DNA of 32,000 nt from Candidatus Saccharimonadota bacterium (GCA_049511795.1 JBEKXS010000001.1:120001-152000), one strand, 5' to 3'. Positions 9,734 to 31,671 are shown, counted from the first letter of the stretch. The notes: a model not told the origin generated them from the sequence alone. Numbers and translations: made by a program.

Positions 9734-12598
9734 TTAAACCTTCAAGCTAATTATTTTTGAAATTCCTTCATGCATGCTGACGCCGTAAAGATTTGTTGCC
9801 TTGGAAATGACTTCATCATTGTGTGTTATGACAATATACTGTCCTTTCTGCATGTATTTGTTAAGAAGACCGGCAAGACGTTCTGAATTTCTTTTGTCAA
9901 GAGCTGCATCTATTTCATCAACAAGATAAAAATAATATGGCCTGTACTCCTGAATTGCGAAGATAAGGGAAAGTGCAACAAGTGTCTGCTCTCCGCCTGA
10001 AAGGGATTTTACATCAAAGTATCTTCCATGGCCCGTTTTTACAGTTATCAAAACTCCAGCGCCTTCTGCAAATGGGTCTTGAGGATTTTCAAGCTCAAGA
10101 TAAACCTGGCCTTTTGTGCTAAGTTCTGAGAAATTTCTGGAAAAGAGTTCATTAAGCGTGTTTAATGTTTGCATGAAAACTTTCTTTTTCTTGACATCTA
10201 TTTCATGAATGATTTTCATTATGCCTTCTTTTTCTTTCTCAATTATTTCTGCTTTTTCCTTTACAGCATCATATTCTTTCTTTATTGAATCGTAAACTTC
10301 AAGAGAACGGAGGTTTACTGTTCCGATGCTTGCAAATGTTTCCTGGTTGCGGGCAAGTCTTTCTGTCAAAAGATCGCGCGATGTTTTTATTATTTCAATT
10401 TCACCGAAACCTGCAAGCTCTGTTTCAAGGTTTTCTGCTTCTGCGTCAATTCTTGCTTTTGTTATTTTGACTTCATTGATTTCTTGTTCTTCTGCGCGGA
10501 TTTCTGTCTGCTTTTTTGAAATTTCCAGTTCTGTATCCCTGTTTTTCTTCTGAAGTGCATCGCGGTCTGAAATAAGCTTTTGGAATTTCTCGCTGAGTTT
10601 TTCTTCCTGAACTTTTTTCTTTTCTAGGATTTCTTCTTTTTCCATCAAAACATCTGTAAGGGAATTTATCTCTTCATTAATGTCTTCCTCATTTCTCAAT
10701 ACCTGTTTTATTGAAGCGCGCATCCTTTCTGCTTCCCGCTCCTTGAATTCAACTTCTGAATCAAGATTTTCTTTTGTCCTTGTTGAAATTTCCTGCAACT
10801 CAATCCTTAAGTTTTCGTATTTTTCATCAATGTTTGAATTGTTCCCAACTTCTTCTTCAAGATTCTTTCCTTTTTTAACAAGCTCTGCAATTTCCTTTTT
10901 CAAATCATCTGCCTTAATCTGCATTGTCTTTATCTGCTCTTTCTTTTCCTCTATTGAGAAAAGTTTTCCAATGTCAACTTCTGTTTTTGAAATATCAGAG
11001 GTTATTTGCTCTATATCTTTTGAAAGAAGCTGCTTTTTCTGGGAGATTTCCTTAAGCTCCTTGTCCATTGACTCAACTCTTTTTTTCAGGTTGTCAATTA
11101 TTGGAGCCATTTCTTTTTTTATCATTCCAAGATGCTCTTTTGTTATCTTGCTTTTGCAGACAGGGCAAATATCCATGCTTGAAATCTTCTCAAGCGTTTC
11201 TCTGTGATGCTCTATCTCTGATTCATTTGCATAAATTATTTTTTCAATCTCTGTTTCCCTTTTGAGGATGTTATTCATTGAATCTTGCTTTTCTGCAAGC
11301 TGGTGCCTTAATTCATCAAGCTTGTTTTGAGAAGAATGTTTGTCAGAAAGCGCTATTGAAATATTCTCTATCTGCCTTAAAAGAAAGTCAGACTCATTTG
11401 TGTAATTCTGGAAAAGGGAATTCTTGTCTTCAAGCCTTTCCTTGGTGTTTTTTAATTCTGCCTTTGATGTATAGAATTTTTTCCTTAAACTTTCAAGTTT
11501 TTCAAGCTCAAGCTTCTTTTTTTCCATTTCTTTTGATTTTGTCGCAGAAGTAGGGGTTTCCTTTTTCAGATTTTTTACCGTTGCTTCAATTGAATCAAGA
11601 GATTCCTGAATTTCTTTTTTCTGGTGAAGAGATTCATTAAGCTTTGAATTGTAATTTTCCTTTCTCACATTCAGACCTGCAAGCTCTGCCCTTAAATCTG
11701 CAATTTCCTGGTTAAGTTTCTCTTGTTCAAGTCCTGTTGATTCCTGAATCTGCCTATTTATCGCAGAAATTTTCAACTCTGTGTTTTTTATTTCTGTTTC
11801 AAAACCAACGATTGTTTTTCTAAATTTTTCAACAATCCTGTTCTTTTCTTCTATGTCTGAATTTATTACTTCTGCTTCTTTTTTCTTTTTTGACAAATCA
11901 TAAGAGATTATGCTTGCCTTGAGTTTCTTTATGTCTTCCTCTAATTTTTTGTATTTCAATGCCTGCTGCCTTTCTTTTTCAAGATTGTTAAGATAAGCTG
12001 TTCTTTCCCTCAAAATAGATGTTATTTCCTTAAGCCTTTCATCTGTTTTTTCAAGTTCGTGGATTGATTTTTCCTTTCTTGTTTCATAAACAGATATTCC
12101 AGATACTTCCTCCAAAATTCCTCGCCTTTCTTCTGATTGCATTCTTACAAAATTTTGAATCTCACCCTGAAGAATTATATTAAATCCCTGTGGGTCAATT
12201 CCTGCCTGTGCCAGAAGGGAGAGAACTTCCTGTCTTGTTTTTGTTTCATCATTTATTTTGTAAATGCTCTGCCCGTTTTTCCTGAGAATTCTTTTTATTG
12301 AGATTTCTTGTGTATCAAGAGAAAATGTTTTCTGCGAATTGTCAAAAAAGATTTCAACGCTTGCTTCTTTCGCCGGAGCGACAGACTTGCTTCCAAGGAA
12401 AATAAGATTTCCTGCGCGTGCAGCACGCAACGATTTCATGCTCATTCTTCCAAGAACAAAGCATATTGCGTCAGAAACATTGCTTTTTCCGCTTCCGTTC
12501 GGGCCTAGAATGACATTGATTCCGGGAGTAAATAATATTTCTGTCTTTTGGGGAAAACTTTTGAAACCGTGCATCACCAGCTTTTTGATATAAGACAT
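9734..12598 (-). CDS. SMC-family ATPase lacking a hinge domain, with a central CxxC zinc-hook-like motif
   Basis: The N-terminal head is MSYIKKLVMHGFKSF...GPNGSGKSNVSDAICFVLG, followed by QGEIQNFVRMQSEERRGILEEVSGISVYETRK. The C-terminal head has LSGGEQTLVALSLIFAIQ (signature), YFYLVDEIDAALD (Walker B) and ITHN (H-loop region). About 600 aa of uninterrupted K/E-rich coiled coil lie between the heads. CPVCKSKITKEH (nt 11156-11167 encode CPVC) sits at residues 478-481 of 954. I placed the start at the ATG at 12598, which has TTTAAAAA 29 nt upstream; the track start at 12613 is TTG. Confidence 0.9.
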   Translation of the reverse strand: MSYIKKLVMHGFKSFPQKTEILFTPGINVILGPNGSGKSNVSDAICFVLGRMSMKSLRAARAGNLIFLGSKSVAPAKEASVEIFFDNSQKTFSLDTQEISIKRILRKNGQSIYKINDETKTRQEVLSLLAQAGIDPQGFNIILQGEIQNFVRMQSEERRGILEEVSGISVYETRKEKSIHELEKTDERLKEITSILRERTAYLNNLEKERQQALKYKKLEEDIKKLKASIISYDLSKKKKEAEVINSDIEEKNRIVEKFRKTIVGFETEIKNTELKISAINRQIQESTGLEQEKLNQEIADLRAELAGLNVRKENYNSKLNESLHQKKEIQESLDSIEATVKNLKKETPTSATKSKEMEKKKLELEKLESLRKKFYTSKAELKNTKERLEDKNSLFQNYTNESDFLLRQIENISIALSDKHSSQNKLDELRHQLAEKQDSMNNILKRETEIEKIIYANESEIEHHRETLEKISSMDICPVCKSKITKEHLGMIKKEMAPIIDNLKKRVESMDKELKEISQKKQLLSKDIEQITSDISKTEVDIGKLFSIEEKKEQIKTMQIKADDLKKEIAELVKKGKNLEEEVGNNSNIDEKYENLRIELQEISTRTKENLDSEVEFKEREAERMRASIKQVLRNEEDINEEINSLTDVLMEKEEILEKKKVQEEKLSEKFQKLISDRDALQKKNRDTELEISKKQTEIRAEEQEINEVKITKARIDAEAENLETELAGFGEIEIIKTSRDLLTERLARNQETFASIGTVNLRSLEVYDSIKKEYDAVKEKAEIIEKEKEGIMKIIHEIDVKKKKVFMQTLNTLNELFSRNFSELSTKGQVYLELENPQDPFAEGAGVLITVKTGHGRYFDVKSLSGGEQTLVALSLIFAIQEYRPYYFYLVDEIDAALDKRNSERLAGLLNKYMQKGQYIVITHNDEVISKATNLYGVSMHEGISKIISLKV

Positions 12599-12619
12599 AT
12601 GAAAAGTAGACAAGGCTTA

Positions 12620-12627
12620 TTTTTAAA
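12620..12627 (-). promoter_or_regulatory. TATA box (TTTAAAAA on the minus strand) for the SMC-like gene
   Basis: Starts 29 nt upstream of the ATG at 12598. Confidence 0.5.
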
Positions 12628-12671
12628 GATTATTTAGCGATAAATGAAATATATATTGTAGTAAATTAATA

Positions 12672-12679
12672 TTTATAAC
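12672..12679 (+). promoter_or_regulatory. TATA box (TTTATAAC) for the 12701 gene
   Basis: Starts 29 nt upstream of the ATG at 12701. Confidence 0.5.
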
Positions 12680-12700
12680 TTTCATTTTCCCGTGTTTTTC

Positions 12701-12952
12701 ATGGAATTAAAGGTTAAAAAGAGAAATGGGCACGAAGTTCACAGAGTCAATGGAACTGCAGAAATCAAGGAAGTTCTTGGAAGTGCTGATTTGTTTGAGC
12801 AGAAGAATCAAATAGTTCAGGTATGCTTTCGTGGAGAGCATTGTTCTGGAATATTTGAGCTTTCAGGAGACGAAGCAAAGGGGCTTTCAAAAGAATTGAA
12901 CAGAGTTACTAAAGCAGGAAACAAGTTCAAGATAATGAAATTAAGAGAATAA
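12701..12952 (+). CDS. Hypothetical small protein
   Basis: 83-aa ORF from the ATG at 12701; the track starts at the GTG at 12692. Its 3' end overlaps the convergent rnhB by 12 nt. No recognisable motif. Confidence 0.45.
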   Translation: MELKVKKRNGHEVHRVNGTAEIKEVLGSADLFEQKNQIVQVCFRGEHCSGIFELSGDEAKGLSKELNRVTKAGNKFKIMKLRE

Positions 12953-13615
12953 CTTTTTCTGATTTGAATCAGAGTGCGCTTTTTTCCAAGTGCTCCAACT
13001 TTTTCTGAAAATGCCGTGGTCATCAAGTTTTTTTAAGTTTTTTTTCAGGAATTTTTTTGTCTTTGGGTCAGATGCATAACCTGAGCCAATAGCTGGTCCA
13101 TATTTTCCCTTCAAGATATCCATCTCGCGCTCTCTTTCCTCTTTTGCAAGTATTGAAGCTGCAGAAACCGCAACATGATTTACATCTGCCTTGTGCTCGC
13201 ATGAAATTTCAAGGTTTGAGAGATTGTCTATATACGTTTTTACTGTTTCTGTCCATGATGTCCTGTTTGTTGAGGGGCAATCAATAACAACTTTCATTTT
13301 TCCAGAGCCCTTGTTTATTTCATTAATAATCTGGGCAGCCATGTGGGCTTCAAGGTCATTTAAGTTAATACCGTCTTTGTTTTTTCCATCAATTTCTGAT
13401 GCTTGTGTCTTCACGACAAAGAATGCTTCTGCTTTTTCCTTGATTGCTGTTTCCAAAAAAGCACGCCTTGTTTTTGAAAGTTGCTTGCTGTCCCGAACCC
13501 CGAGCCTCTTCAGCTCTTTTTCTGCTTCAGCTTTTATTAGGCAACCGGCAAGAATCATTGGACCAATTACAGGACCTCTTCCTGCATCATCAATACCTAA
13601 AATAAGTTCCGGCAT
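12941..13615 (-). CDS. rnhB: Ribonuclease HII
   Basis: The N-terminus ILGIDDAGRGPVIGPMILAG, plus ...DSKQLS... and ...SAASILAK..R, are classic RNase HII active-site motifs. CTTAAAAA starts 29 nt upstream of the ATG. Confidence 0.92.
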   Translation of the reverse strand: MPELILGIDDAGRGPVIGPMILAGCLIKAEAEKELKRLGVRDSKQLSKTRRAFLETAIKEKAEAFFVVKTQASEIDGKNKDGINLNDLEAHMAAQIINEINKGSGKMKVVIDCPSTNRTSWTETVKTYIDNLSNLEISCEHKADVNHVAVSAASILAKEEREREMDILKGKYGPAIGSGYASDPKTKKFLKKNLKKLDDHGIFRKSWSTWKKAHSDSNQKKLFS

Positions 13616-13700: not shown

Positions 13701-13723
13701 TGTTCTGCAGGTTGTTTTTGGAT

Positions 13724-13799
13724 AGCGGGGTAGAGGAGCCTGGAGTCCTCGCAGGGCCCATAACCCTGAGATCGCGTGGTTCAAATCCCGCCCCCGCTA
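13724..13799 (+). tRNA. tRNA-Met(CAU), probably the initiator
   Basis: Manual cloverleaf. The acceptor is AGCGGGG/CCCCGCT with an A1:U72 pair. The anticodon stem-loop is CAGGG-CCCAUAA-CCCUG, giving three consecutive G:C pairs next to the loop. The T arm contains GGTTCAAATCC. A1:U72 plus the GGG:CCC anticodon stem are archaeal initiator features. Confidence 0.85.
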
Positions 13800-13806
13800 T
13801 TTTTTT
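13800..13806 (+). terminator. T7 run immediately after tRNA-iMet
   Basis: TTTTTTT directly follows the discriminator base, as in a typical archaeal oligo-T terminator. Confidence 0.5.
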
Positions 13807-13823: not shown

Positions 13824-13849
13824 TGCTAAATAATTCAAAATTTCAATAT

Positions 13850-13930
13850 GCCACAGTCGCATAGCGGTATTGCAGCGGATTGCTAATCCGCGCCCTTCGG
13901 GGCTCCCAGGTTCGATTCCTGGCTGTGGCG
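13850..13930 (+). tRNA. tRNA-Ser(GCU), type II with a long variable arm
   Basis: Manual fold. The acceptor is GCCACAG/CTGTGGC and the anticodon stem-loop is GCGGA-TTGCTAA-TCCGC. The variable arm is GCCCTTCGGGGC and the T arm is CCAGG-TTCGATT-CCTGG. Confidence 0.85.
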
Positions 13931-13938
13931 TTTTCAAC

Positions 13939-14487
13939 ATGCCTGAAATTTACCAGCCAGAAGAAGATTCTTATTTGATGTCTGAGAAAATAGCAGAGGA
14001 AATCTCAAATATATTAAGCAAAAATAAAAATCCAATTTTTTTGGAAATAGGCTGTGGTTCTGGAATAAATTTGCGGGTTGCACTTGATTCTGGAATAAAA
14101 AAACAAAATATTCTTGGCACAGACATTAATGAAGAAGCTGTCAGGCATTGTAAAAGTTTAGGATTTAATTGCATATTATCTGATTTGTTTGACAAGATCA
14201 AGGGAAAATTTGACATAATTGTTTTCAATCCCCCATATTTGCCGTTGGACAAAAATGAGCCAGAAGAATCAAGGCAGGAAACAACAGGTGGAAAAAAAGG
14301 AAATGAAATAATTATTAAATTTCTGAACCAGGCAAAGAAATATTTAGCAAAAGAAGGGGAAATTCTGATAATAACCAGTAGTTTATCTCAAGATGTTGAT
14401 TTCAAGAAGTTAGGTTATAGAGCTGCTGAGTTAGCAGATAAAAAATTATTCTTTGAAAAAATAATTATCTGGAGGTTAGAGATATAA
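13939..14487 (+). CDS. HemK/Mtq2-like N5-glutamine (or N6-adenine) methyltransferase
   Basis: Contains FLEIGCGSGINL (motif I) and IIVFNPPYLP (NPPY motif IV). The ATG at 13939 lies 8 nt after the tRNA-Ser 3' end. The ORF-track start at 13870 falls inside the tRNA and is rejected. Confidence 0.8.
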   Translation: MPEIYQPEEDSYLMSEKIAEEISNILSKNKNPIFLEIGCGSGINLRVALDSGIKKQNILGTDINEEAVRHCKSLGFNCILSDLFDKIKGKFDIIVFNPPYLPLDKNEPEESRQETTGGKKGNEIIIKFLNQAKKYLAKEGEILIITSSLSQDVDFKKLGYRAAELADKKLFFEKIIIWRLEI

Positions 14488-14489
14488 AA

Positions 14490-15077
14490 TTAATCCAAGG
14501 CAACAAACTTATCCCTGCCTGTCTGTTTTGCCTTGTAAAGAGCTTGGTCAACACGCTCTTTTATTTTTTTCTCTGAGTCATCTCTTCTGTATTCTGTTAA
14601 ACCGCCAGAAACAGTCAAGCCATATTTCTTGAATATAGTATCTGATTTTATTGCGTCTCTAAGCCTTGAAGTTATCGTTTTTGCTTTTTCAAGATCTGTT
14701 TGTGGAAGGAGAATCATAAACTCTTCTCCACCAAATCTTGCAATGACATCAGGAGTTCTTAGCTGGTTCACAAGCATTTTTGAAAGCCTTACAAGAAATT
14801 CATCTGCTTTCATATGCCCGTATTTGTCATTTATTTTTTTGAAGAAGTCAACATCTATCATGAAAAGAGAAAGATGTTCCTGATTTCTCCTTGCCTTCTC
14901 TATTTCCATGTTAAAAACATTGTCAAAGAACTTCATGTTATACAATCCGGTTTTTTCGTCATGAGTTGCAATTTCATAAAGCCAAGAAACATATTTTTTA
15001 TCAGAAGGCTTAACGCTTTTGAAGAGTTTTTCTATTTTTTCCCTGAAATCTTTTCCAAATGCTGCTTTCTTACTCAT
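14490..15077 (-). CDS. Stand-alone GGDEF-domain protein (putative diguanylate cyclase)
   Basis: Matches the GGDEF family along the whole domain: HDEKTGLYNMKFF, FMIDVDFFKKINDKYGHMKADEFL, RTPDVIARFGGEEFMILLP, LTVSGGL and VDQALYKAKQTGRDKF. GGEEF is encoded at nt 14718-14732. RTPD, an RxxD motif five residues upstream, is encoded at nt 14748-14759. The ATG at 15077 has TTTATTAA 29 nt upstream; the track start at 15083 is TTG. Confidence 0.85.
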   Translation of the reverse strand: MSKKAAFGKDFREKIEKLFKSVKPSDKKYVSWLYEIATHDEKTGLYNMKFFDNVFNMEIEKARRNQEHLSLFMIDVDFFKKINDKYGHMKADEFLVRLSKMLVNQLRTPDVIARFGGEEFMILLPQTDLEKAKTITSRLRDAIKSDTIFKKYGLTVSGGLTEYRRDDSEKKIKERVDQALYKAKQTGRDKFVALD

Positions 15078-15098
15078 TAGCAATTTAACAATTTTTAT

Positions 15099-24205: not shown

Positions 24206-24258
24206 AAATTAATTTTTTCAACGCTAATTTAATAAACTCTTTTTTCTTTATGATTTTG

Positions 24259-24774
24259 ATGGAAAAAAGAGGGCAATTTTATCTTGTTGCTGCAATAATC
24301 ATCACAGTTATTGTCATGGGAATTGCTGCCATTTCAAATTATTCAATAAAATCAGAACCGACAAATGTTGAAGCATTAAAAGAGCAAATACAAACAGAAA
24401 GCACAAAAACAATTGATTATGGCATAAACAAACCATTAGACCAAAACGGGATGTTCAATCTTCTTACTGATTTCACCCAGCAATACATAAATTCTGAATC
24501 AAGGGACAAAAATCTTTACTTCATTTTCGGCACAAAAACAAACATGACTTTGAATGGTTTTCAAAATACAAATAATAATGTTCTTTTAGATAATGCTGCA
24601 GTTACTTCAAACAGCAATAGTGCATTTTTGTATAGTGAAGTGCCTGCAAACCCTAATTTAGTAATATTAACAATAAATCAAACAGACTATGATTTTAACT
24701 TAAGCGATGGGCAAAATTTCTTTTTTGTAATTTCTCAGCAAACAGGAGGTGAAACAGATGTTGTCAGTTGGTAA
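24259..24774 (+). CDS. Type IV pilin-like protein with a class III signal peptide
   Basis: MEKRGQ/FYLVAAIIITVIVMGIAAI has a short basic leader, a G-Q cleavage-type site and a hydrophobic helix. The body is N/T-rich with N-x-S/T sequons. The track start is the ATG at 24250. The ATG at 24259 fits the class III leader and the upstream TTTAATAA better. Confidence 0.6.
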   Translation: MEKRGQFYLVAAIIITVIVMGIAAISNYSIKSEPTNVEALKEQIQTESTKTIDYGINKPLDQNGMFNLLTDFTQQYINSESRDKNLYFIFGTKTNMTLNGFQNTNNNVLLDNAAVTSNSNSAFLYSEVPANPNLVILTINQTDYDFNLSDGQNFFFVISQQTGGETDVVSW

Positions 24775-26011
24775 ATGGAAGAAGAATAAATTAGGTGTCA
24801 GCGTCATAATCGGCTATATTCTTCTTGTTGCCTTTGCAGTTGTGACTGGAGCAATTGTTTACAACTACCTAAGAACATATGTTCCAACACAACCATTGTC
24901 ATGTCCTGATGGAGTTTCACTTTTTGTTCAGGATTCAAACTACTGCGGAAACCAGCTAAATCTTACGATAAGAAACAATGGAAGATTTGATGTTGCTGGC
25001 TATTATATCAGGGCAACAAATTCATCAAGCCAAACAATCCCAATTATTGACCTTTCTTCTTCTTTAAACAGCACTTACGGCGGATTCCCAAATGGAAACT
25101 TAATTATGTTTTCTCCTGCAAACAATAACTCTTTTACAGCAGGAAATCAGACAATGCATGTGTACACTATTTCATCATCATTAGGAAATATCTCTTCTAT
25201 ACAAATAGTTCCTGCAGTTTATGAAGTCCAGAACAACAGAAATATTTTAGCAAGATGCTCAAATGCAATCCAAACTGAAAGCGACATTCAATGTACAGTT
25301 GGTTGTATTCCCGCAATAAATGATAATTTAAACGCAATTTGTGGAATAAGAGTTTGTGGAACACAACAGAATGGGACATGCGGTTCTATTAGTTGCGGAA
25401 CTTGTACAGGTGGGAATGTATGCAACTCAACAGGGCAATGTGTTTCTCAATCACAATGCATAGACACATGTACAAACTTAGGATTTCAATGCGGAACCCA
25501 TACAGTTTGTGGAGTAAATACTCTTTGTGGAACATGTAGTGGAACAAATAATCTTTGTAATTCAACAGGGCAGTGTGTATCTTCTCTTTGCGGAACCCCT
25601 GATCAAGTTTGCAGCAGCGGAGGTTCCCAATCATGTACTATAAATGGGTACCCAGGAACACAAACATGTAATTCTCAATGTACTGCATGGAGTGCATGCA
25701 CAACAACTTATGGAAATGGTGTCTGTGATCCCGGAGAAACTTGTGCAGAACCAGCATGCCAGGGTTATCAAGCAGCATGTACATCAGGAAATGTTTGTAT
25801 TTCAGGTTCATGTCAACCAATAGGCGGTGGAAGCACATGCACAAATTACTGCATAAGTTTAGTTAATCATAATCCTAGATACACAAGCGGCAGCTGCCTT
25901 TCTAGTTCAGACCAATGTCAAACTAATGGTGGGACTTATGAATCAGGAGGAAACCCATATTGCCCTCTTGGTTCGTCTCTATCGCCTACAGGAACATGCT
26001 GTTGTTTTTAA
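24758..26011 (+). CDS. Large type IV pilin-like protein with a cysteine-rich C-terminal module
   Basis: GGAGGTG lies 7 nt upstream of the ATG at 24758; the track start at 24749 is a GTG inside that SD. The N-terminus MLSVGKWKKNKLG/VSVIIGYILLVAFAVVTGAIVYNY is an archaeal DUF361-type prepilin signal. In the C-terminal region of about 250 aa I count about 38 Cys, with repeats CGTCTGGNVCNSTGQCVS / CGTCSGTNNLCNSTGQCVS. The protein ends in ...GTCCCF. Confidence 0.72.
   Translation: MLSVGKWKKNKLGVSVIIGYILLVAFAVVTGAIVYNYLRTYVPTQPLSCPDGVSLFVQDSNYCGNQLNLTIRNNGRFDVAGYYIRATNSSSQTIPIIDLSSSLNSTYGGFPNGNLIMFSPANNNSFTAGNQTMHVYTISSSLGNISSIQIVPAVYEVQNNRNILARCSNAIQTESDIQCTVGCIPAINDNLNAICGIRVCGTQQNGTCGSISCGTCTGGNVCNSTGQCVSQSQCIDTCTNLGFQCGTHTVCGVNTLCGTCSGTNNLCNSTGQCVSSLCGTPDQVCSSGGSQSCTINGYPGTQTCNSQCTAWSACTTTYGNGVCDPGETCAEPACQGYQAACTSGNVCISGSCQPIGGGSTCTNYCISLVNHNPRYTSGSCLSSSDQCQTNGGTYESGGNPYCPLGSSLSPTGTCCCF
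25394..25585 (+). repeat. Intragenic direct repeat encoding the CGTC-x(4,5)-C-NSTGQCVS unit
   Basis: 25394-25450 (tgcggaacttgtacaggtgggaatgtatgcaactcaacagggcaatgtgtttctcaa) and 25526-25585 (tgtggaacatgtagtggaacaaataatctttgtaattcaacagggcagtgtgtatcttct) are clearly related at both DNA and protein level. Confidence 0.7.
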
Positions 26012-26017
26012 AATAAA

Positions 26018-26025
26018 TTTATAAA
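26018..26025 (+). promoter_or_regulatory. TATA box (TTTATAAA) for the pilin gene at 26047
   Basis: Starts 29 nt upstream of the ATG at 26047, implying a leaderless mRNA. Confidence 0.55.
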
Positions 26026-26046
26026 TTGCAAAAGCGTTGAATAAAA

Positions 26047-26529
26047 ATGATGAAGAGGATGAAAAAAAGAGGTTTGTCTCCTGTTATTGCGACAATGCTT
26101 CTTGTTGCAATGACAATTGCTCTTGCTCTTATTGTTTTCTTGTGGTTCCGAAGCTTCAATCAGGAAGCAATCACAAAATTCGGCGGAACAAACATAGATA
26201 TTGTATGCCAGCAAGTCCAGTTTGACGCAAATTATGATTCTAGTTCAGATACATTGTCAATTCAAAATTCAGGGAATGTTCCTGTATACAGTTTCAGCCT
26301 TCAGATACAAAAATCAGGAAGCCAGCAGACAATTGATATGACAAGTGCTGTTGCAGACTGGCCAAAAATCGGATTGCCTGTAAATGGAGTTTACTCCGGA
26401 GCAATTGACAGCACAGATGCAAGCGGCGCAAGCACGATAACTGTAATTCCTGTCTTGAGGGGAACTTCAAGCAGCGGAATAAAAACTCATGTTTGTTCTA
26501 GCCAGTACGGGAAGCAATTAACTGTATGA
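26047..26529 (+). CDS. Archaeal type IV pilin (DUF361-type N-terminus)
   Basis: MMKRMKKRG/LSPVIATMLLVAMTIALALIVFLWF is a textbook archaeal class III signal peptide with the (K/R)G-(L/V)SPVI motif. Confidence 0.82.
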   Translation: MMKRMKKRGLSPVIATMLLVAMTIALALIVFLWFRSFNQEAITKFGGTNIDIVCQQVQFDANYDSSSDTLSIQNSGNVPVYSFSLQIQKSGSQQTIDMTSAVADWPKIGLPVNGVYSGAIDSTDASGASTITVIPVLRGTSSSGIKTHVCSSQYGKQLTV

Positions 26530-27047
26530 AAATGAAATCAAAAAAAGGATTATCAGCTGTTGTGGAAACTATGATTATGATTGCTCTTGTAATTGCAGCT
26601 GTTTCAATAATCTGGGTCGTCATAAACAATACAATAAACACGCAATTGAATACAGCAAGCTCTTGCGCAAATGTTGTTGACAAAGTCACAATTGACCAGA
26701 GATATACTTGCTATAATGAAAGCTCTGACCAACTTAGACTTGCAATTAATGTTGGCGACATAAAAAATCTTCAGGACATTTTAGTTTCTATAACACAAGG
26801 CGGGCAGAGCAAAAGTTTTAAGATAAATACAGACAACGCCACTGACGGTTTGAAGTATTTTAACTGGTCAGGACCTATGCAAATTCCAGGACCAAATTCA
26901 GGATTAACATATATTTATCCAATGAACTCGCCTATTGTTCAATTTCCAGACCAAGTTGAAATTGCGCCAATTATCAACGGGAACACATGCACAGGACCTG
27001 CTCCTATAACACAAATAGACAGTTGCACATTGCTCGCTTCTGGATAA
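26526..27047 (+). CDS. Archaeal type IV pilin (DUF361-type N-terminus)
   Basis: MKMKSKKG/LSAVVETMIMIALVIAAVSIIWVVI. An ATGA start/stop overlap with the previous pilin gene indicates translational coupling. Confidence 0.8.
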   Translation: MKMKSKKGLSAVVETMIMIALVIAAVSIIWVVINNTINTQLNTASSCANVVDKVTIDQRYTCYNESSDQLRLAINVGDIKNLQDILVSITQGGQSKSFKINTDNATDGLKYFNWSGPMQIPGPNSGLTYIYPMNSPIVQFPDQVEIAPIINGNTCTGPAPITQIDSCTLLASG

Positions 27048-27071
27048 AACAAAAATATTCTCAAAGAAAAT

Positions 27072-27079
27072 ATTATAAA
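27072..27079 (+). promoter_or_regulatory. TATA box (ATTATAAA) for the pilin-like gene at 27101
   Basis: Starts 29 nt upstream of the ATG at 27101. Confidence 0.5.
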
Positions 27080-27100
27080 CTATCCCTCGCTAGTAGGTAT

Positions 27101-27667
27101 ATGAATCTGAAAAAGAGGTTTTTATTTGGAAAAACGCGCGGAAAAAATTATATCCAGGGGCAGGTTTGGGTAGAAACGGTTATCTATACCCTTGTTGCTT
27201 TTGCATTAATGGGGCTTGTTCTTGCATTTGTTGTTCCAAAAGTTCAGGAAACGCAAGACAAAGGAATCATACAGCAGTCAGTTGGAATAATGAACAACAT
27301 TGATACAACCATAAGAAATCTTGGGAGCCCGGGAAACCAGAGAGTTATACAATTAAGCATACAAAAAGGCTCTTTGACAATAAATGCCACAAGTGACCAG
27401 ATAATTTTCAACATTGAAAGCAATTACCAATACAGCCAGCCGGGAGAAAATGTCACAGTAGGAAACTTGGTCGTGCAGGATGAAAAAGAAAACAATATTG
27501 ATGTAATAAATATGGCATTGGATTACTCCGGATTGTATAATCTAAGCTACAATGGGCAGGAAATATCAAAGACATTAACAAGTGCCTCAACGCCATACAC
27601 TGTCACAATATCTGACCAAGGTCAGGATCCATCAGGAAATGCAATAATAAACTTTCAGGTAAGCTAA
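27101..27667 (+). CDS. Type IV pilin-like protein with a class III signal peptide
   Basis: MNLKKRFLFGKTRGKNYIQGQ/VWVETVIYTLVAFALMGLVLAFVV. The ORF-track extension back to 26987 overlaps the previous pilin gene and is rejected. Confidence 0.65.
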   Translation: MNLKKRFLFGKTRGKNYIQGQVWVETVIYTLVAFALMGLVLAFVVPKVQETQDKGIIQQSVGIMNNIDTTIRNLGSPGNQRVIQLSIQKGSLTINATSDQIIFNIESNYQYSQPGENVTVGNLVVQDEKENNIDVINMALDYSGLYNLSYNGQEISKTLTSASTPYTVTISDQGQDPSGNAIINFQVS

Positions 27668-27677
27668 AAATAAAAAA

Positions 27678-29222
27678 ATGGCAACGATAAAAGACTATCC
27701 AAGAGTCAAAATAAATTTCAATCCAGAAGTTCCTCCCTTAAAGATATCTAAGGATAAAACAAAAATAGATGTCCGTTACAGCGTTCTTGCTCCTTTTGCA
27801 TTTATACACATTCATTGGGACCCAAAAGAGTTTGAAGTTATGTACGAAATTGAAGAGCCAATACTTAATGCAGAAGAGCAGGCATATGCAGACCAGATTC
27901 TTAATGCAATGCGAGACATGATTGATTTTGACGTCATCGTCGAGAAAGACAATGAAAAGCTTCTTGAATACATTGACAAGAGATTTAAAATAATAGCGTT
28001 TGAGCTTGGACTGAACATTTCATATGAAGCTTACAAAAAAATATATTACTATCTTGTAAGGGATTTCATCGGCTTCAATGAAGTTGAGCCTTTGCTAAGA
28101 GATTATTTTGTTGAAGATATAGAGTGCAATGGTGCTGACAGCCCTGTTTACATTGTCCACAGAATTTTCAGGAACCTTAAAACAAATCTGATTTTCAAAA
28201 GCATTGATAGATTAGAAAATTTTGTAGAGAAACTGGCGCAAAGAAGCGGAAAATACATTTCATATGCCTCCCCGATACTTGATTCAACATTGCCTGACGG
28301 AAGCAGGGTAAATGCAACATACACAAAAGATATAACAAGCAGGGGACCAACATTTACAATCAGGAAATTCACAAAAACTCCATGGACACCTCCTCAACTT
28401 TTGGCTTTCCAGACCTTAAGCCCTGAAATGCTCGCATATTTGTGGATTTTAGTTCAATATAAAATGAATATTCTAATAACAGGAGGAACATCGTCGGGAA
28501 AAACAACTTTGCTTAATGCAATTGCATTCTTTATTCCGCCAGAGGCAAGGGTTGTTTCAATTGAAGATACGCGTGAACTTAATTTGCCAAGGGAAAACTG
28601 GCTTCCAAGCGTTGTGCGTAGTGCAACAGGGGCTGGAAATGTTGGTGAAATCGACCTTTTCACATTGCTGAAAAGCTCTTTCAGGCAAAATCCGGATTAT
28701 GTAATTGTGGGTGAAGTCAGGGGAGAAGAGGCATATGTTCTCTTCCAGGGAATGGCATCAGGGCACTCATCAATAAGCACTATCCACGCAGATTCTGTAG
28801 ACACTGTTATACAAAGATTGGAAACTCCACCAATCAACCTTTCGCCTACTCTTCTCAATGTACTTGATTGCGTATGCATCATGACGCATGCAATCGCAAA
28901 AAAGCAGGAAACAAGGAAGCTAAAGGAAATTGTTGAAATAATAAATGTAACTCCTGATGGCGTTGCTTTGACAAACACTCCTTTTATCTGGAATCCAAGC
29001 GATGACAGCTTCTACTTCAAGAAAAACAGCAAGATTTTCGAGAAAATATCAAAAAGATATGGAATTGATCCAAAGGAACTTGATGAAGAATTCAGGACAA
29101 GAGTCAAACTCCTTTACACCCTGTATGAACATAAAGTGTTTGGTTTCCAGGAATTCCAAGACGTTGTAACACAGTATTACAAGAAACCAAAAGAAACTTT
29201 GGCTAAATTTAATATTGGATAG
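27678..29222 (+). CDS. FlaI/ArlI-PilB/TadA-family type IV pilus (secretion) ATPase
   Basis: 514 aa. Walker A is ILITGGTSSGKTTLLNA, the Asp box is VVSIEDTRELNL, Walker B is PDYVIVGEVRGEEA and the His box is GHSSISTIHADS. The N-terminal domain is typical of archaeal FlaI-like ATPases. Confidence 0.92.
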   Translation: MATIKDYPRVKINFNPEVPPLKISKDKTKIDVRYSVLAPFAFIHIHWDPKEFEVMYEIEEPILNAEEQAYADQILNAMRDMIDFDVIVEKDNEKLLEYIDKRFKIIAFELGLNISYEAYKKIYYYLVRDFIGFNEVEPLLRDYFVEDIECNGADSPVYIVHRIFRNLKTNLIFKSIDRLENFVEKLAQRSGKYISYASPILDSTLPDGSRVNATYTKDITSRGPTFTIRKFTKTPWTPPQLLAFQTLSPEMLAYLWILVQYKMNILITGGTSSGKTTLLNAIAFFIPPEARVVSIEDTRELNLPRENWLPSVVRSATGAGNVGEIDLFTLLKSSFRQNPDYVIVGEVRGEEAYVLFQGMASGHSSISTIHADSVDTVIQRLETPPINLSPTLLNVLDCVCIMTHAIAKKQETRKLKEIVEIINVTPDGVALTNTPFIWNPSDDSFYFKKNSKIFEKISKRYGIDPKELDEEFRTRVKLLYTLYEHKVFGFQEFQDVVTQYYKKPKETLAKFNIG

Positions 29223-29278
29223 ACTTCTTAATGGTTATAAACGAAAGTATTTAATAACACTTTTTCCTTCTTTGATAT

Positions 29279-29464
29279 ATGAAAAAAGGTGAAAGGAATT
29301 CTGCTGTAGAGGGCGAAATCTCCTCAATAAATTACCTTATAAGAATGCTGGGTATGCATGTACAAAAGCTTGAGGAAGCTTACAAAAAGAAAGACCATAG
29401 GGAATTCAATATAATCAAAAAAGAGATTATTCAGATACAAAAAAAGATACACACTCTTATATAA
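29279..29464 (+). CDS. Small coiled-coil protein, possible pilus accessory
   Basis: 61 aa, helical and K/E/I-rich. Its stop lies 1 nt before the next ATG. TTTAATAA starts 29 nt upstream of its ATG. Confidence 0.4.
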   Translation: MKKGERNSAVEGEISSINYLIRMLGMHVQKLEEAYKKKDHREFNIIKKEIIQIQKKIHTLI

Positions 29465-29465
29465 A

Positions 29466-30788
29466 ATGGCAATAGACGAACTGAAAGCTAATTTTGAAAG
29501 AGAGAAGAAAATAGCTGACCAAATAAGTTCCTTAACTCAGGAGCTGAACAATTCCGAAAGCGATGAAGAAAGAAGAATGATTTCATCGCAGATAAACATA
29601 CTGAAATCATCGCTAAGAAAATCAAGTCAAGGCGTTGTCAATGCTGCGGAAAACATTTCAATGCCAAATCCGCTGCCAACACAGACAAAAACTGCATTGC
29701 CTGTTGTTAAAGCAAAACCTGCAGCAGCACAGACAGGAAAACCAGTGTTCACAGGAAAAGTTGAGGATTTGTTTCCTGCATTTACATTAAGAAAGCAAAA
29801 AGTGTCTAGTCTTGAAAAAGACACAATAAAAAGACTAAAGAAAAAAGAAGTTGTTGTTGCAAAGAAAAAAGAAAAAACTCCAAGTGTTTATGTAAAATTT
29901 GCAAGCAACCTTTTTTACAAAAGAGCTGAAAAGCAGATTAAGAAAGGAAGTTTTTACAATTTAAGAAGGGATTTAATAAAAGGCAACCTTGATTTTGTTC
30001 CTGAAAGCTATATTTCTGTGATTTATTTTACAACCCTGATTTCATTCATTGCATCTATTTTTGTAATGATTTTTTTCCTTTTCTTTGACCTTATTGCCAC
30101 GCCGCCATTCCTGGTTGCAACAAAGACAGCAATCACAACAAGATTTTTGGAAACTTTCTGGATTCTTATTGTTCTTCCTGCTATTGTTTTTATTTTTGCA
30201 TATTTTTACCCGACGCTGGAGAAAAGATCCCTGGAAACAAGAATAAATGAAGAGCTTCCTTTTGCAGTAATCCACATGTCCTCTGTTTCAAGGTCAATGA
30301 TTGAGCCAAGCAAGATTTTCTCGATTATTATTGCTACAGGAGAATATCCTCATCTTGAAAAAGAATTTACAAAACTTTTCAATGATGTCAACATTTACGG
30401 CTATGACCTTGTTACTGCATTAAGGGATATGGCATTCAACAGCCCAAGCAGAAAGCTTTCTGATTTGTACAATGGGCTTGCAACAACAATAACTTCTGGC
30501 GGAGATCTTCCGGAATTTTTTGATAAAAGGGCGCAGACTCTTCTTTTTGACCATCGTCTTGAAACAGAAAAGCATGCAAAAGCTGCAGAAACATTCATGG
30601 ATATTTACATAAGCGTTGTCATAGCTTCTCCAATGATTCTTATGCTTTTGCTTGTAATGATGAGCGCAAGCGGCCTTGGATTAAGCCTGAGCACTTCAAT
30701 GATAAGCCTGATTATGGTTTTGGCAGTCACCTTGATGAATGTTTTATTCCTCGTATTTTTACACCTAAAACAGCCAGGAGGAGAATAA
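29466..30788 (+). CDS. Pilus platform membrane protein, first half (FlaJ/TadB-like T2SSF domain) with a long N-terminal cytoplasmic extension
   Basis: The T2SSF-like region is LPFAVIHMSSVSRSMIEPSKIF...YGYDLVTALRDMA...LATTITSGGDLPEFF. TM helices flank it, and about 170 aa of coiled-coil/K-rich sequence precede it. Confidence 0.8.
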   Translation: MAIDELKANFEREKKIADQISSLTQELNNSESDEERRMISSQINILKSSLRKSSQGVVNAAENISMPNPLPTQTKTALPVVKAKPAAAQTGKPVFTGKVEDLFPAFTLRKQKVSSLEKDTIKRLKKKEVVVAKKKEKTPSVYVKFASNLFYKRAEKQIKKGSFYNLRRDLIKGNLDFVPESYISVIYFTTLISFIASIFVMIFFLFFDLIATPPFLVATKTAITTRFLETFWILIVLPAIVFIFAYFYPTLEKRSLETRINEELPFAVIHMSSVSRSMIEPSKIFSIIIATGEYPHLEKEFTKLFNDVNIYGYDLVTALRDMAFNSPSRKLSDLYNGLATTITSGGDLPEFFDKRAQTLLFDHRLETEKHAKAAETFMDIYISVVIASPMILMLLLVMMSASGLGLSLSTSMISLIMVLAVTLMNVLFLVFLHLKQPGGE

Positions 30789-30804
30789 AAATAAAAGATA
30801 AAAA

Positions 30805-31671
30805 ATGGAACTAAAAAAAGGATATTGGGTCGGAATTGCATTCGGATTCCTAATTGTACTTGCCTCTCTTGCTTTCATAGGAACAAGATTTTTCCTTTTC
30901 ATAATTGGTATAGGGATTTTGACAATAGCTGCGCCTTTTGTGCTGGCAACAATAAATGAAACAAATGCAGCAACTGAGAAAGAAGACATGTTCCTTGAAT
31001 TTGCAAGAAATCTTGTTGAAAGCGTGAAAACAGGAACGCCAATAAGCAAGAGCATTGTCAATGTAAAGGACAAGCCATATGGCGTCTTGAGCGAGAACAT
31101 AAAAAAGCTTGCAAACCAAATTTCAATGGGAATACCATTGAACTCTGCGCTTCAAACATTTTCAAAAGATGTAAACAACAAAACTATTTCGAGGGCGCTA
31201 ACATTAATAGGGCAGGCAGAAAAAAGCGGCGGAGAAATTGGAGGAATTCTTGAATCTGTTACAGAAGCTGTCAGCACTTCTGACAGGCTGAAAAAAGAAA
31301 GGAAGGCAGCAATCTCAAGCCTTGTTGTCGAGGGATACATAATTTTCCTTGTGTTCATAGTTATTATTCTTGTCCTTCAATTCCAGATTCTTCCAATGAT
31401 TACAAACATAGTTCCTTCTGGTTCATCTTTAGGATTAGGAGGAATAGGAGGCCTTGGCGGAATTGGCGGGGGCGGAGGACAGCCAATAGACAAAACGCAA
31501 ATAGCAAATGCTTTCCTTTATCTGCTTCTTATTCAGGCATTTTTCACAGGCTTGACAATAGGAATGCTTTCTGAAGGCAGCATGAAGCCGGGAATAAAGC
31601 ACTCTTTCATCCTTATGGCAATTGCATTCTTGATTTCAGCAGGAGCAAATGTTTTGTTTGGGGGTGCTTAA
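30805..31671 (+). CDS. Pilus platform membrane protein, second half (FlaJ/TadC-like T2SSF domain)
   Basis: FLEFARNLVESVKTGTPISKSI...MGIPLNSALQTFSK....ISRALTLIGQAEKSGGEIGGILESV is a T2SSF signature. It has N-terminal and C-terminal TM helices and a Gly-rich insert GSSLGLGGIGGLGGIGGGGGQ. Confidence 0.8.
   Translation: MELKKGYWVGIAFGFLIVLASLAFIGTRFFLFIIGIGILTIAAPFVLATINETNAATEKEDMFLEFARNLVESVKTGTPISKSIVNVKDKPYGVLSENIKKLANQISMGIPLNSALQTFSKDVNNKTISRALTLIGQAEKSGGEIGGILESVTEAVSTSDRLKKERKAAISSLVVEGYIIFLVFIVIILVLQFQILPMITNIVPSGSSLGLGGIGGLGGIGGGGGQPIDKTQIANAFLYLLLIQAFFTGLTIGMLSEGSMKPGIKHSFILMAIAFLISAGANVLFGGA

Follow-up and report, generated by a model that had tools for sequence, protein, structure and literature searches.

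A probable zinc hook instead of a hinge in an SMC protein of Pacearchaeota

Introduction

[quoted passage not shown] The question is raised by a gene located at positions 9734..12598, on the minus strand, of a 32,000-nucleotide stretch of DNA (JBEKXS010000001.1:120001-152000, assembly GCA_049511795.1, deposited as Candidatus Saccharimonadota bacterium), the whole of which is called the window below. An earlier note, made from the sequence of the window alone, had proposed that this protein could be either the only SMC of its lineage, or an intermediate class between SMC and Rad50. We conclude here that it is a derived SMC, and not a Rad50, a member of the archaeal SMC-related proteins (ASRP), or an evolutionary intermediate. 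The reading that we favour, and which we consider likely to be right, is that the gene is the Pacearchaeota (DPANN) orthologue of the archaeal SMC, in which the hinge, of about 170 amino acids, was replaced by a minimal Rad50-type zinc hook, with arms of near-full length.

A 2023 review (PMC10586767) associates SMC proteins with a hinge and a kleisin, and Rad50 with a hook and Mre11, LmuB being often hook-bearing. In a 2021 survey (PMC8665677), DPANN were counted among the holders of a "canonical aSMC", and zinc was not mentioned. We found no earlier description of a natural hook-bearing SMC in the literature, for which coverage of subscription journals was thin.

Results

The gene encodes a complete protein with SMC-type heads

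The open reading frame extends from 9734 to 12613 on the minus strand and opens with a TTG codon. Counted from the ATG at 12598, it encodes 954 amino acids and ends with a TAA stop codon (9734-9736). This ATG was taken as the true start because homologues open with M.YIKK. The gene, as found in the list of open reading frames and with its coordinates verified, is complete, and its length is that given in the earlier note (about 954 amino acids). Its product is 100% identical to a protein from a metagenome-assembled genome (P0001), labelled [quoted passage not shown].

With the whole protein as query, Pfam reported SMC_N (PF02463, 1e-54 over residues 3-947) and generic AAA families. In a sequence search of the PDB, head constructs of Pyrococcus Smc ranked first (5e-103 to 4e-82), followed by bacterial Smc and eukaryotic SMC1-4, whereas the best Rad50 head was found at 1.8e-12. 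The match to 5xei covers residues 1-309 (E-value of 1.5e-60 for this stretch), and residues 695-953 form a second stretch matching the Pyrococcus Smc head (1.5e-42). Among NCBIfam models, SMC_prok_A (TIGR02169) scored 536 bits and SMC_prok_B 513 bits, while Rad50 models gave 65-108 bits for cut-offs of 700-1087; arcadin-4 and RecN gave 38 and 33 bits, respectively. Both SMC scores stay under their equivalog cut-offs, 729 and 567, which we attribute to the absence of the hinge.

The N-terminal ATPase half-head (residues 1-168, 12095..12598, minus strand as for all features of the gene), placed by its match to 5xei, contains the Walker A motif GPNGSGKSN (residues 32-40, 12479-12505), the segment SMKSLRAA (residues 53-60, 12419-12442), whose R58 we take to be the SMC arginine finger, and the Q-loop IILQGEIQ (residues 141-148, 12155-12178). 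The C-terminal half-head (residues 791-954, 9737..10228), also placed by its match to the Pyrococcus Smc head, contains the signature LSGGEQT (residues 866-872, 9983-10003), the Walker B and D-loop YFYLVDEIDAALD (9896-9934), which includes YLVDEIDAALD (residues 891-901), and the H-loop IVITHND (9815-9835). Residues of Walker A, the R58 segment, the Q-loop, the signature, the Walker B Glu, the D-loop and the H-loop are invariant across the family. Every head motif quoted in the earlier note was located at verified coordinates, and its description of both half-heads as being of the SMC/condensin type is borne out. Given the PDB and NCBIfam rankings and the full set of catalytic motifs, we conclude that the heads are canonical SMC heads. 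Identity with Rad50/SbcC was ruled out on the same head similarities.

P0151, a hinge-type SMC whose cluster is labelled Woesearchaeota, is about 46% identical to the window protein over the N-terminal head and proximal arm, and 41% identical in the C-terminal part. The BLASTP alignment of the two proteins extends to about residue 348 and resumes from about residue 638. The proximal arm alone, scanned as a sub-sequence, scored 67 bits on the SMC model.

The apex resembles a Rad50 hook and has no hinge

With the full protein, Pfam gave no match to SMC_hinge (PF06470) at a threshold as loose as E<=10, nor any to the zinc hook family (PF04423). A hidden Markov model of the hinge built locally was positive for 82 hinge-type relatives, and for none of the 24 hook-type proteins. 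A full-length AlphaFold model was obtained from a 35-sequence alignment, with a mean predicted local distance difference test (pLDDT) of 72.9 and values mostly of 80-90 in the arms. The N-terminal, ascending arm (residues 169-474, 11177..12094) is predicted to form helices 169-346, 351-416 and 424-474, and the descending arm (residues 490-790, 10229..11131) follows helices 487-586, 590-605, 612-729, 741-757 and 764-826; the limits of both arms come from these helices, the P0151 alignment and the arm-length counts given below. Helix breaks are short (347-350, 417-423, 587-589, 606-611, 730-740 and 758-763), and short breaks are believed to be usual in SMC arms. The earlier note had described the region between the heads as an uninterrupted coiled coil devoid of hinge: the absence of the hinge holds by both Pfam and the local model, but the coiled coil is not strictly uninterrupted.

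The two arms meet at an apex hook, MDICPVCKSKITKEH (residues 475-489, 11132..11176), defined from the AlphaFold model and from the PF04423 and 1L8D matches described next. Its non-helical part is 12 residues long (475-486), and is the sole such apex in both the full-length model and a model of the hook alone. CPVC (residues 478-481, 11156-11167), within CPVCKSKITKEH, lies at the exact midpoint of the 954 residues, as the earlier note had it. The protein contains three cysteines, two of which belong to this motif; given three cysteines, a CxxC would fall 5 residues or less from the midpoint with a probability of about 8e-5. The single hairpin apex and the hook-only model suggest that the arms, of about 300 residues per strand, pair in an antiparallel manner.

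Hook tests were then carried out on 94-residue segments centred on CPxC, from 21 members of the family. PF04423 (Rad50_zn_hook) was matched by all 21 at E<=10, with a best value of 1.2e-7. When the profile of the hook region was compared to the PDB, the best match was 1L8D, the hook of Pyrococcus furiosus Rad50, and 6ZFF came second; in the alignment, CPlCkskITkEH is paired with CPVCGRELTDEH of 1L8D, which agrees with the hook sequence given in the earlier note. The hook-only AlphaFold model has a pLDDT of 93.8, and in a Foldseek search with this model the two top-ranked of about 350,000 chains were A and B of 1L8D (template modelling score 0.75-0.77), the human Rad50 hook 5GOX being third. 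The likeness to the Pyrococcus hook noticed earlier was therefore recovered both by profile and by fold. Foldseek with the full-length model returned generic SMC, condensin and Smc5/6 matches only, and was uninformative on the apex.

Arm lengths and the CPxC motif are conserved

In the hook class, the distance from Walker A to the first cysteine is 438 amino acids in 92 of 142 homologues (range 433-453), compared to 453-467 from Walker A to the hinge boundary in hinge-type sisters. On the descending side, 382-384 amino acids separate the second cysteine from LSGGE in 120 of the 142 (exactly 382 or 384 in 115), for 384-398 from hinge boundary to LSGGE in the hinge-type sisters. About 170 hinge residues are thus gone, and the arms are within about 0-29 residues (0-4 heptads) of those of the sisters. 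When the profiles of hook-type and hinge-type sisters were compared with hhalign, they aligned collinearly in one piece, and the point at which the hinge block is inserted is exactly CPVC; the confidence line is blank over the distal arms.

CPxC was present in all of the 142 intein-free homologues measured, down to about 39% identity, and C478, P479 and C481 are invariant in the hook family. The best 120 clusters at 90% identity are all at least 61% identical to the window protein, and 935-984 amino acids long, except for three intein-bearing proteins of about 1470 amino acids; in the 117 intein-free close orthologues, CP[VILFM]C is always central and followed by ..(K)..IT..H. Deeper relatives were collected by an exhaustive search of 1.84 billion representatives at 50% identity. 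All full-length, single-stretch relatives of 946-1023 amino acids, at 39-48% identity, have a central CPxC, and the deepest hook-type members keep it without the histidine (CPKCKQKITKEY, CPTCLRVIDDAA), so that H489 is not conserved there. The next-ranked relatives, of 1078-1203 amino acids, have no CxxC, and have the PF06470 SMC_hinge. The full-length hook-type proteins amount to at least about 24 clusters at 50% identity. The conservation of CxxC among orthologues, the lack of which would have counted against the proposal of the earlier note, was found in every intein-free relative examined.

Many DPANN SMCs carry extra blocks of about 500 amino acids within the N-terminal head, just after Walker A (around residues 36-38), apparently in both architectures. 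Such blocks were seen in the hook-type proteins P0074, P0096, P0099, P0121 and P0127, and in P0164, P0166, P0175, P0176, P0178, P0186 and P0188, which lack a central CxxC and are presumably hinge-type. Intein Pfam domains (LAGLIDADG_3, Intein_splicing) were found in P0074, P0096 and P0099; for the others, an intein is suggested by the split head match.

Origin of the hook

The window hook, of consensus CP[VIL]C...IT.EH, and that of Thermococcales Rad50 have in common a 12-residue pattern, C-P-V-C-x3-[LI]-T-x-E-H. When sub-sequences comprising the distal arm and the hook were scanned, Rad50 and ASRP models matched in register, at 26-59 bits (26-53 bits for Rad50 models), whereas control arms from which the hinge had been deleted gave no such matches. 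The ASRP model applied to residues 340-640 alone scored 42 bits, also in register with the hook. Because of the shared pattern and of these in-register matches, the sequence comparison favours acquisition of the hook from a hook-bearing relative over its emergence de novo. We did not adopt the wholesale transfer of a "distal arm plus hook" block from a Rad50 or ASRP donor, since the CPxC anchor could by itself give matches in register. The distal arms of hinge-type SMCs are likewise unrecognisable to SMC models.

The hook-type proteins form a clade next to hinge-type SMCs, at a shared locus

A head tree was built by neighbour-joining from 118 full-length representatives (353 concatenated columns, Kimura distances, 200 bootstraps). 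A single clade, recovered in 194 of the 200 replicates (97%), unites the 24 hook-type proteins and four short ones having neither hinge nor hook, and the sister of this clade is a group of 14 hinge-type proteins. Named members of the hook clade are all Pacearchaeota, and the two named members of the sister clade are both Woesearchaeota. Just outside the sister clade, two more named hinge-type relatives are Woesearchaeota, and a third is labelled Nitrospiraceae, probably through mis-binning. None of the named hinge-type relatives is labelled Pacearchaeota. Pacearchaeota and Woesearchaeota are sister DPANN lineages, and the gene tree therefore mirrors the species tree.

Directly upstream of the SMC gene lies a gene for RNase HII (12941..13615, minus strand, PF01351 7e-46), which we use as a syntenic marker and do not regard as part of the machine. 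RNase HII is upstream of the hook-type gene in loci L001-L005, and also in L092, which encodes a deep-branching hook-type protein. It is upstream of the hook-less form at L090, one gene removed, and upstream of the hinge-type gene at the Woesearchaeota locus L006/L007, three genes removed (L006 6947-7591, SMC at 10001-13480). From this common linkage, we conclude that hook-type, hinge-type and hook-less forms are positional orthologues, which argues that the hook-type protein is the SMC of the lineage and not an extra paralogue.

Placement of the heads inside archaeal SMCs, and not Rad50/SbcC, thus stands by phylogeny as by the PDB and NCBIfam searches. With the hinge match lacking and CxxC conserved, none of the three findings that the earlier note would have accepted as a refutation was made, and its central proposal is supported. 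Of the two possibilities raised by the earlier note, the lineage's own SMC is favoured by the position of the clade, sister to Woesearchaeota hinge-type proteins, and by the shared locus; the intermediate class is unsupported.

Bacterial NCBI labels (Patescibacteria, Bacillota, Nitrospiraceae) were met on several SMCs, among them P0046 (locus L005), P0112, P0117 and P0171. The "Patescibacteria" contig L005, which carries P0046, encodes diphthamide synthase, ribosomal protein S17e and a tRNA-intron endonuclease. Given these archaeal markers, the label is likely due to mis-binning, and we assumed the same for the other bacterial labels. In the close Pacearchaeota loci, a PCMT gene is kept downstream of the SMC gene.

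The hook-type protein could alternatively be a specialised paralogue of the ASRP kind (ClsN/Sph, "coalescin"), working alongside a canonical SMC whose gene lies at another place of that genome. A zinc hook is present in ASRPs, which are SMC-related proteins of archaea (PMC9389158), the middle part of the hook-type protein is matched by the ASRP model, as reported above for residues 340-640, and a second SMC may lie beyond the loci covered here. On the whole protein, however, the ASRP model (NF045487) scored 122 bits, mostly over arms and hook (residues 293-654) and far under its cut-off of 300, which together with the head phylogeny rules out membership of the family. The heads, with their 536 bits on the SMC model and 46% identity to those of P0151, the sister position relative to Woesearchaeota-labelled hinge-type SMCs at the same RNase HII-linked locus, and the lack of the Pacearchaeota label on any named hinge-type relative all argue against such a paralogue, and the in-register ASRP and Rad50 matches are explicable by CPxC anchoring a generic coiled coil. 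We therefore regard this alternative as unlikely, and keep to the reading of the gene as the SMC of Pacearchaeota.

Some orthologues have neither hinge nor hook

The four short proteins of the hook clade are Pacearchaeota SMC orthologues, P0140 (804 amino acids), P0142 (801), P0143 (779) and P0145 (781); genes of this form are found at L090 10001-12415 and L091 1080-3494. They share one central deletion, of about residues 385-600 of the query, which corresponds to the distal arms and the hook. They are nested inside the hook clade, at the RNase HII-linked locus, and their presence in several independent assemblies indicates that they are not artefacts.

SMC-like proteins of about 750-770 amino acids were also seen in bacteria of the candidate phyla radiation (CPR; Patescibacteria and Saccharibacteria labels), with SMC heads, no detectable hinge and no cysteine pair (L042 2456-4738, L050 8169-10421, L058 6933-9179, L083 3568-5853, and P0254 and P0255). 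They may represent a parallel loss of the hinge in another genome-reduced radiation.

Could CPxC be a structural turn only, which caps a tight loop or binds a metal or serves redox chemistry within one molecule, with dimerisation ensured by arm-arm packing, heads and a partner? Orthologues without hook or hinge in the same clade and locus, as well as the CPR proteins of about 760 amino acids, make apex dimerisers seem dispensable in reduced genomes, and the deep-branching members without the histidine have kept CPxC. Yet a single chain cannot complete a tetrahedral zinc site with two cysteines, and it has no further invariant ligand close by; CPxC persists where the flanking arm sequence has diverged past BLAST detection; and sequence and fold match specifically the intermolecular hook of Rad50. 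A mere turn is in our opinion improbable, and a hook that joins two protomers is the explanation retained below.

No nuclease or kleisin gene is found nearby

Pfam gave no match to Mre11, ScpA or ScpB in the window, nor within about 10 kb outside it, in line with what had been noted for the genes adjacent to the SMC gene. Neither the window nor the flanks of the orthologous loci examined showed a gene for Mre11 or another metallophosphatase. Among the unannotated neighbours, 10 open reading frames gave no Pfam match to a kleisin or kite protein at E<=10, and a local ScpA hidden Markov model, made from archaeal smc-scpA operons, did not match the DPANN locus DNA examined. ScpA searches recovered 686 ScpA proteins, some of them labelled Micrarchaeota and Marsarchaeota. 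A scan of GTDB genomes with generic head-motif patterns, derived from the full-length alignment, gave no Pacearchaeota locus among the matches listed.

A Rad50-like ATPase of double-strand-break repair, whose hook would tether DNA ends or complexes and whose Mre11-type nuclease would be encoded elsewhere, accounts for an apex close to the archaeal Rad50 hook and for the in-register Rad50 matches, but is very unlikely in view of SMC-type and not Rad50-type heads, of the phylogenetic and positional orthology with canonical SMC, of a proximal arm that aligns with SMC, and of the absence of Mre11 or any other nuclease partner near the gene at any locus examined. The Rad50-Mre11 interface sits on coiled-coil base residues that are specific to Rad50.

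Other features of the window

A GGDEF diguanylate-cyclase protein is encoded at 14490-15083 (minus strand, PF00990 8.6e-40), and is kept in the Pacearchaeota contigs L001, L002 and L004; to our knowledge, enzymes of cyclic di-GMP signalling are unusual in archaea. Two tRNA genes, tRNA-Met (13722-13801, plus strand) and tRNA-Ser (13849-13931, plus strand), are situated immediately upstream of the mechanical start of a methyltransferase open reading frame (13870-14487, plus strand, Eco57I/MTS matches). The tRNA-Ser gene overlaps this start, and the frame probably begins further downstream; its called length differs between two related contigs (100 and 182 amino acids). Finally, the region 24250-31671 (plus strand) contains a cluster reminiscent of archaeal type IV pilus or archaellum-like systems, with a small protein having a sub-threshold match to the archaeal type IV pilin N-terminus, several unannotated small open reading frames, a T2SSE ATPase and two T2SSF membrane proteins.

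Discussion

Compared to canonical SMC (Pyrococcus Smc, 5XEI/4I99; P0151), the window protein has the same head motifs, proximal arms, arm length and RNase HII position, but it lacks the PF06470 hinge, of about 170 amino acids, and has a CPxC loop in its place. Like Rad50/SbcC, it carries the CPxC motif of a zinc hook at the tip of its coiled coil, which is predicted to be antiparallel, CPVCKSKITKEH being aligned with P. furiosus CPVCGRELTDEH; its heads, however, are not of the Rad50 type, and no Mre11 gene is adjacent. ASRPs (ClsN/coalescin, Sph1/2; Yoshinaga 2022, PMC9389158) are also archaeal members of the SMC superfamily with a zinc hook instead of a hinge, but they form a separate and more divergent paralogous family, whereas the window heads group with canonical SMC.

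A close parallel is a laboratory construct. Burmann et al. (2017, PMC5344682) reported that B. subtilis grows normally on an Smc whose hinge has been exchanged for the P. furiosus Rad50 hook, and that the function of this Smc still depended on arm length. In this chimera, Smc(Zh), as in the window protein, SMC heads and full-length SMC arms are closed by a Rad50-type hook, and arm lengths are tight in the natural family as well. The near-invariant arm length of the family fits the "tuned arm" picture drawn from the chimera. Smc(Zh) differs in that the hook was transplanted with flanking coiled coil, whereas the present family is natural, archaeal and lineage-wide, and known here from sequence. 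Conversely, the hook of fission-yeast Rad50 can be replaced by the MukB hinge (PMC6969161). Together, the two swaps make the replacement of a hinge by a hook feasible.

Several points weigh against the reading of the gene as a hook-bearing Pacearchaeota SMC. On the side of the hook, the window protein's own PF04423 score (E-value of 0.0025, 18 bits) is under the gathering cut-off of 24.3 bits, and Foldseek gave only weak E-values for the hook (0.04), helical hairpins being a generic fold. Zinc binding and zinc-mediated dimerisation of the apex are predictions from sequence and model. Moreover, the hook-less and hinge-less forms inside the clade imply that an apex dimeriser may not be essential in this lineage. 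On the side of the SMC assignment, the head tree is of the neighbour-joining and not of the maximum likelihood kind; ScpA and ScpB (PF02616/PF04079) were found within about 10 kb at none of the Pacearchaeota and Woesearchaeota loci examined; and no Pacearchaeota or Woesearchaeota ScpA appears among the 120 matches listed of the 686 ScpA proteins. Lastly, these genomes may encode a second SMC, with a hinge, outside the loci covered here.

How would an SMC of this kind operate? Since only two cysteines per chain are available for a zinc site, the model needs a dimer. One tetrahedral Zn2+ would be bound by four cysteines, two from either protomer, as in Rad50, and the constitutive apex dimer so joined by zinc would stand in for the hinge. 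At the other end, the ATP-driven cycle of head engagement and disengagement would act on DNA as in Smc-ScpAB, probably with a kleisin partner, and the outcome would be chromosome organisation and segregation by DNA entrapment or loop extrusion.

Three architectures are observed at one RNase HII-linked DPANN locus: a hinge in Woesearchaeota-labelled proteins (about 1150 amino acids), a zinc hook in Pacearchaeota (about 952 amino acids), and neither in some Pacearchaeota (about 800 amino acids). This makes a graded natural series, from hinge to hook to neither, at a single locus of genome-reduced archaea. It also points to an annotation gap: equivalog models under-call hook-type SMCs, and the label "SMC family protein" hides their architecture. 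What is new is a natural, lineage-wide counterpart of Smc(Zh), with a further reduced, hook-less form at the same locus. The only earlier evidence that we found for hinge-free function of a prokaryotic SMC is the engineered B. subtilis chimera (PMC5344682), and evolution appears to have made the same swap and to have fixed it across a diverse archaeal lineage. This gives independent support to the idea that SMC function constrains the geometry of the arms and not the identity of the dimerisation domain.

In several models of DNA loading and loop extrusion, the hinge plays an active role, for instance in DNA binding, as an entry gate or in contacting the heads. Should the hook-type protein, and with it the "bare" type, be the only SMC of its host and still organise chromosomes, SMC motors would be able to do without a hinge in nature, a conclusion that we hold tentatively, as somewhat less than an even prospect. 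Were it true, the roles proposed for the hinge in DNA binding, gating and loop extrusion would be dispensable too, and so would even a covalent-like dimeriser at the apex. The Pacearchaeota proteins offer a natural hinge-less SMC for biochemical and single-molecule tests of hinge-dependent models.

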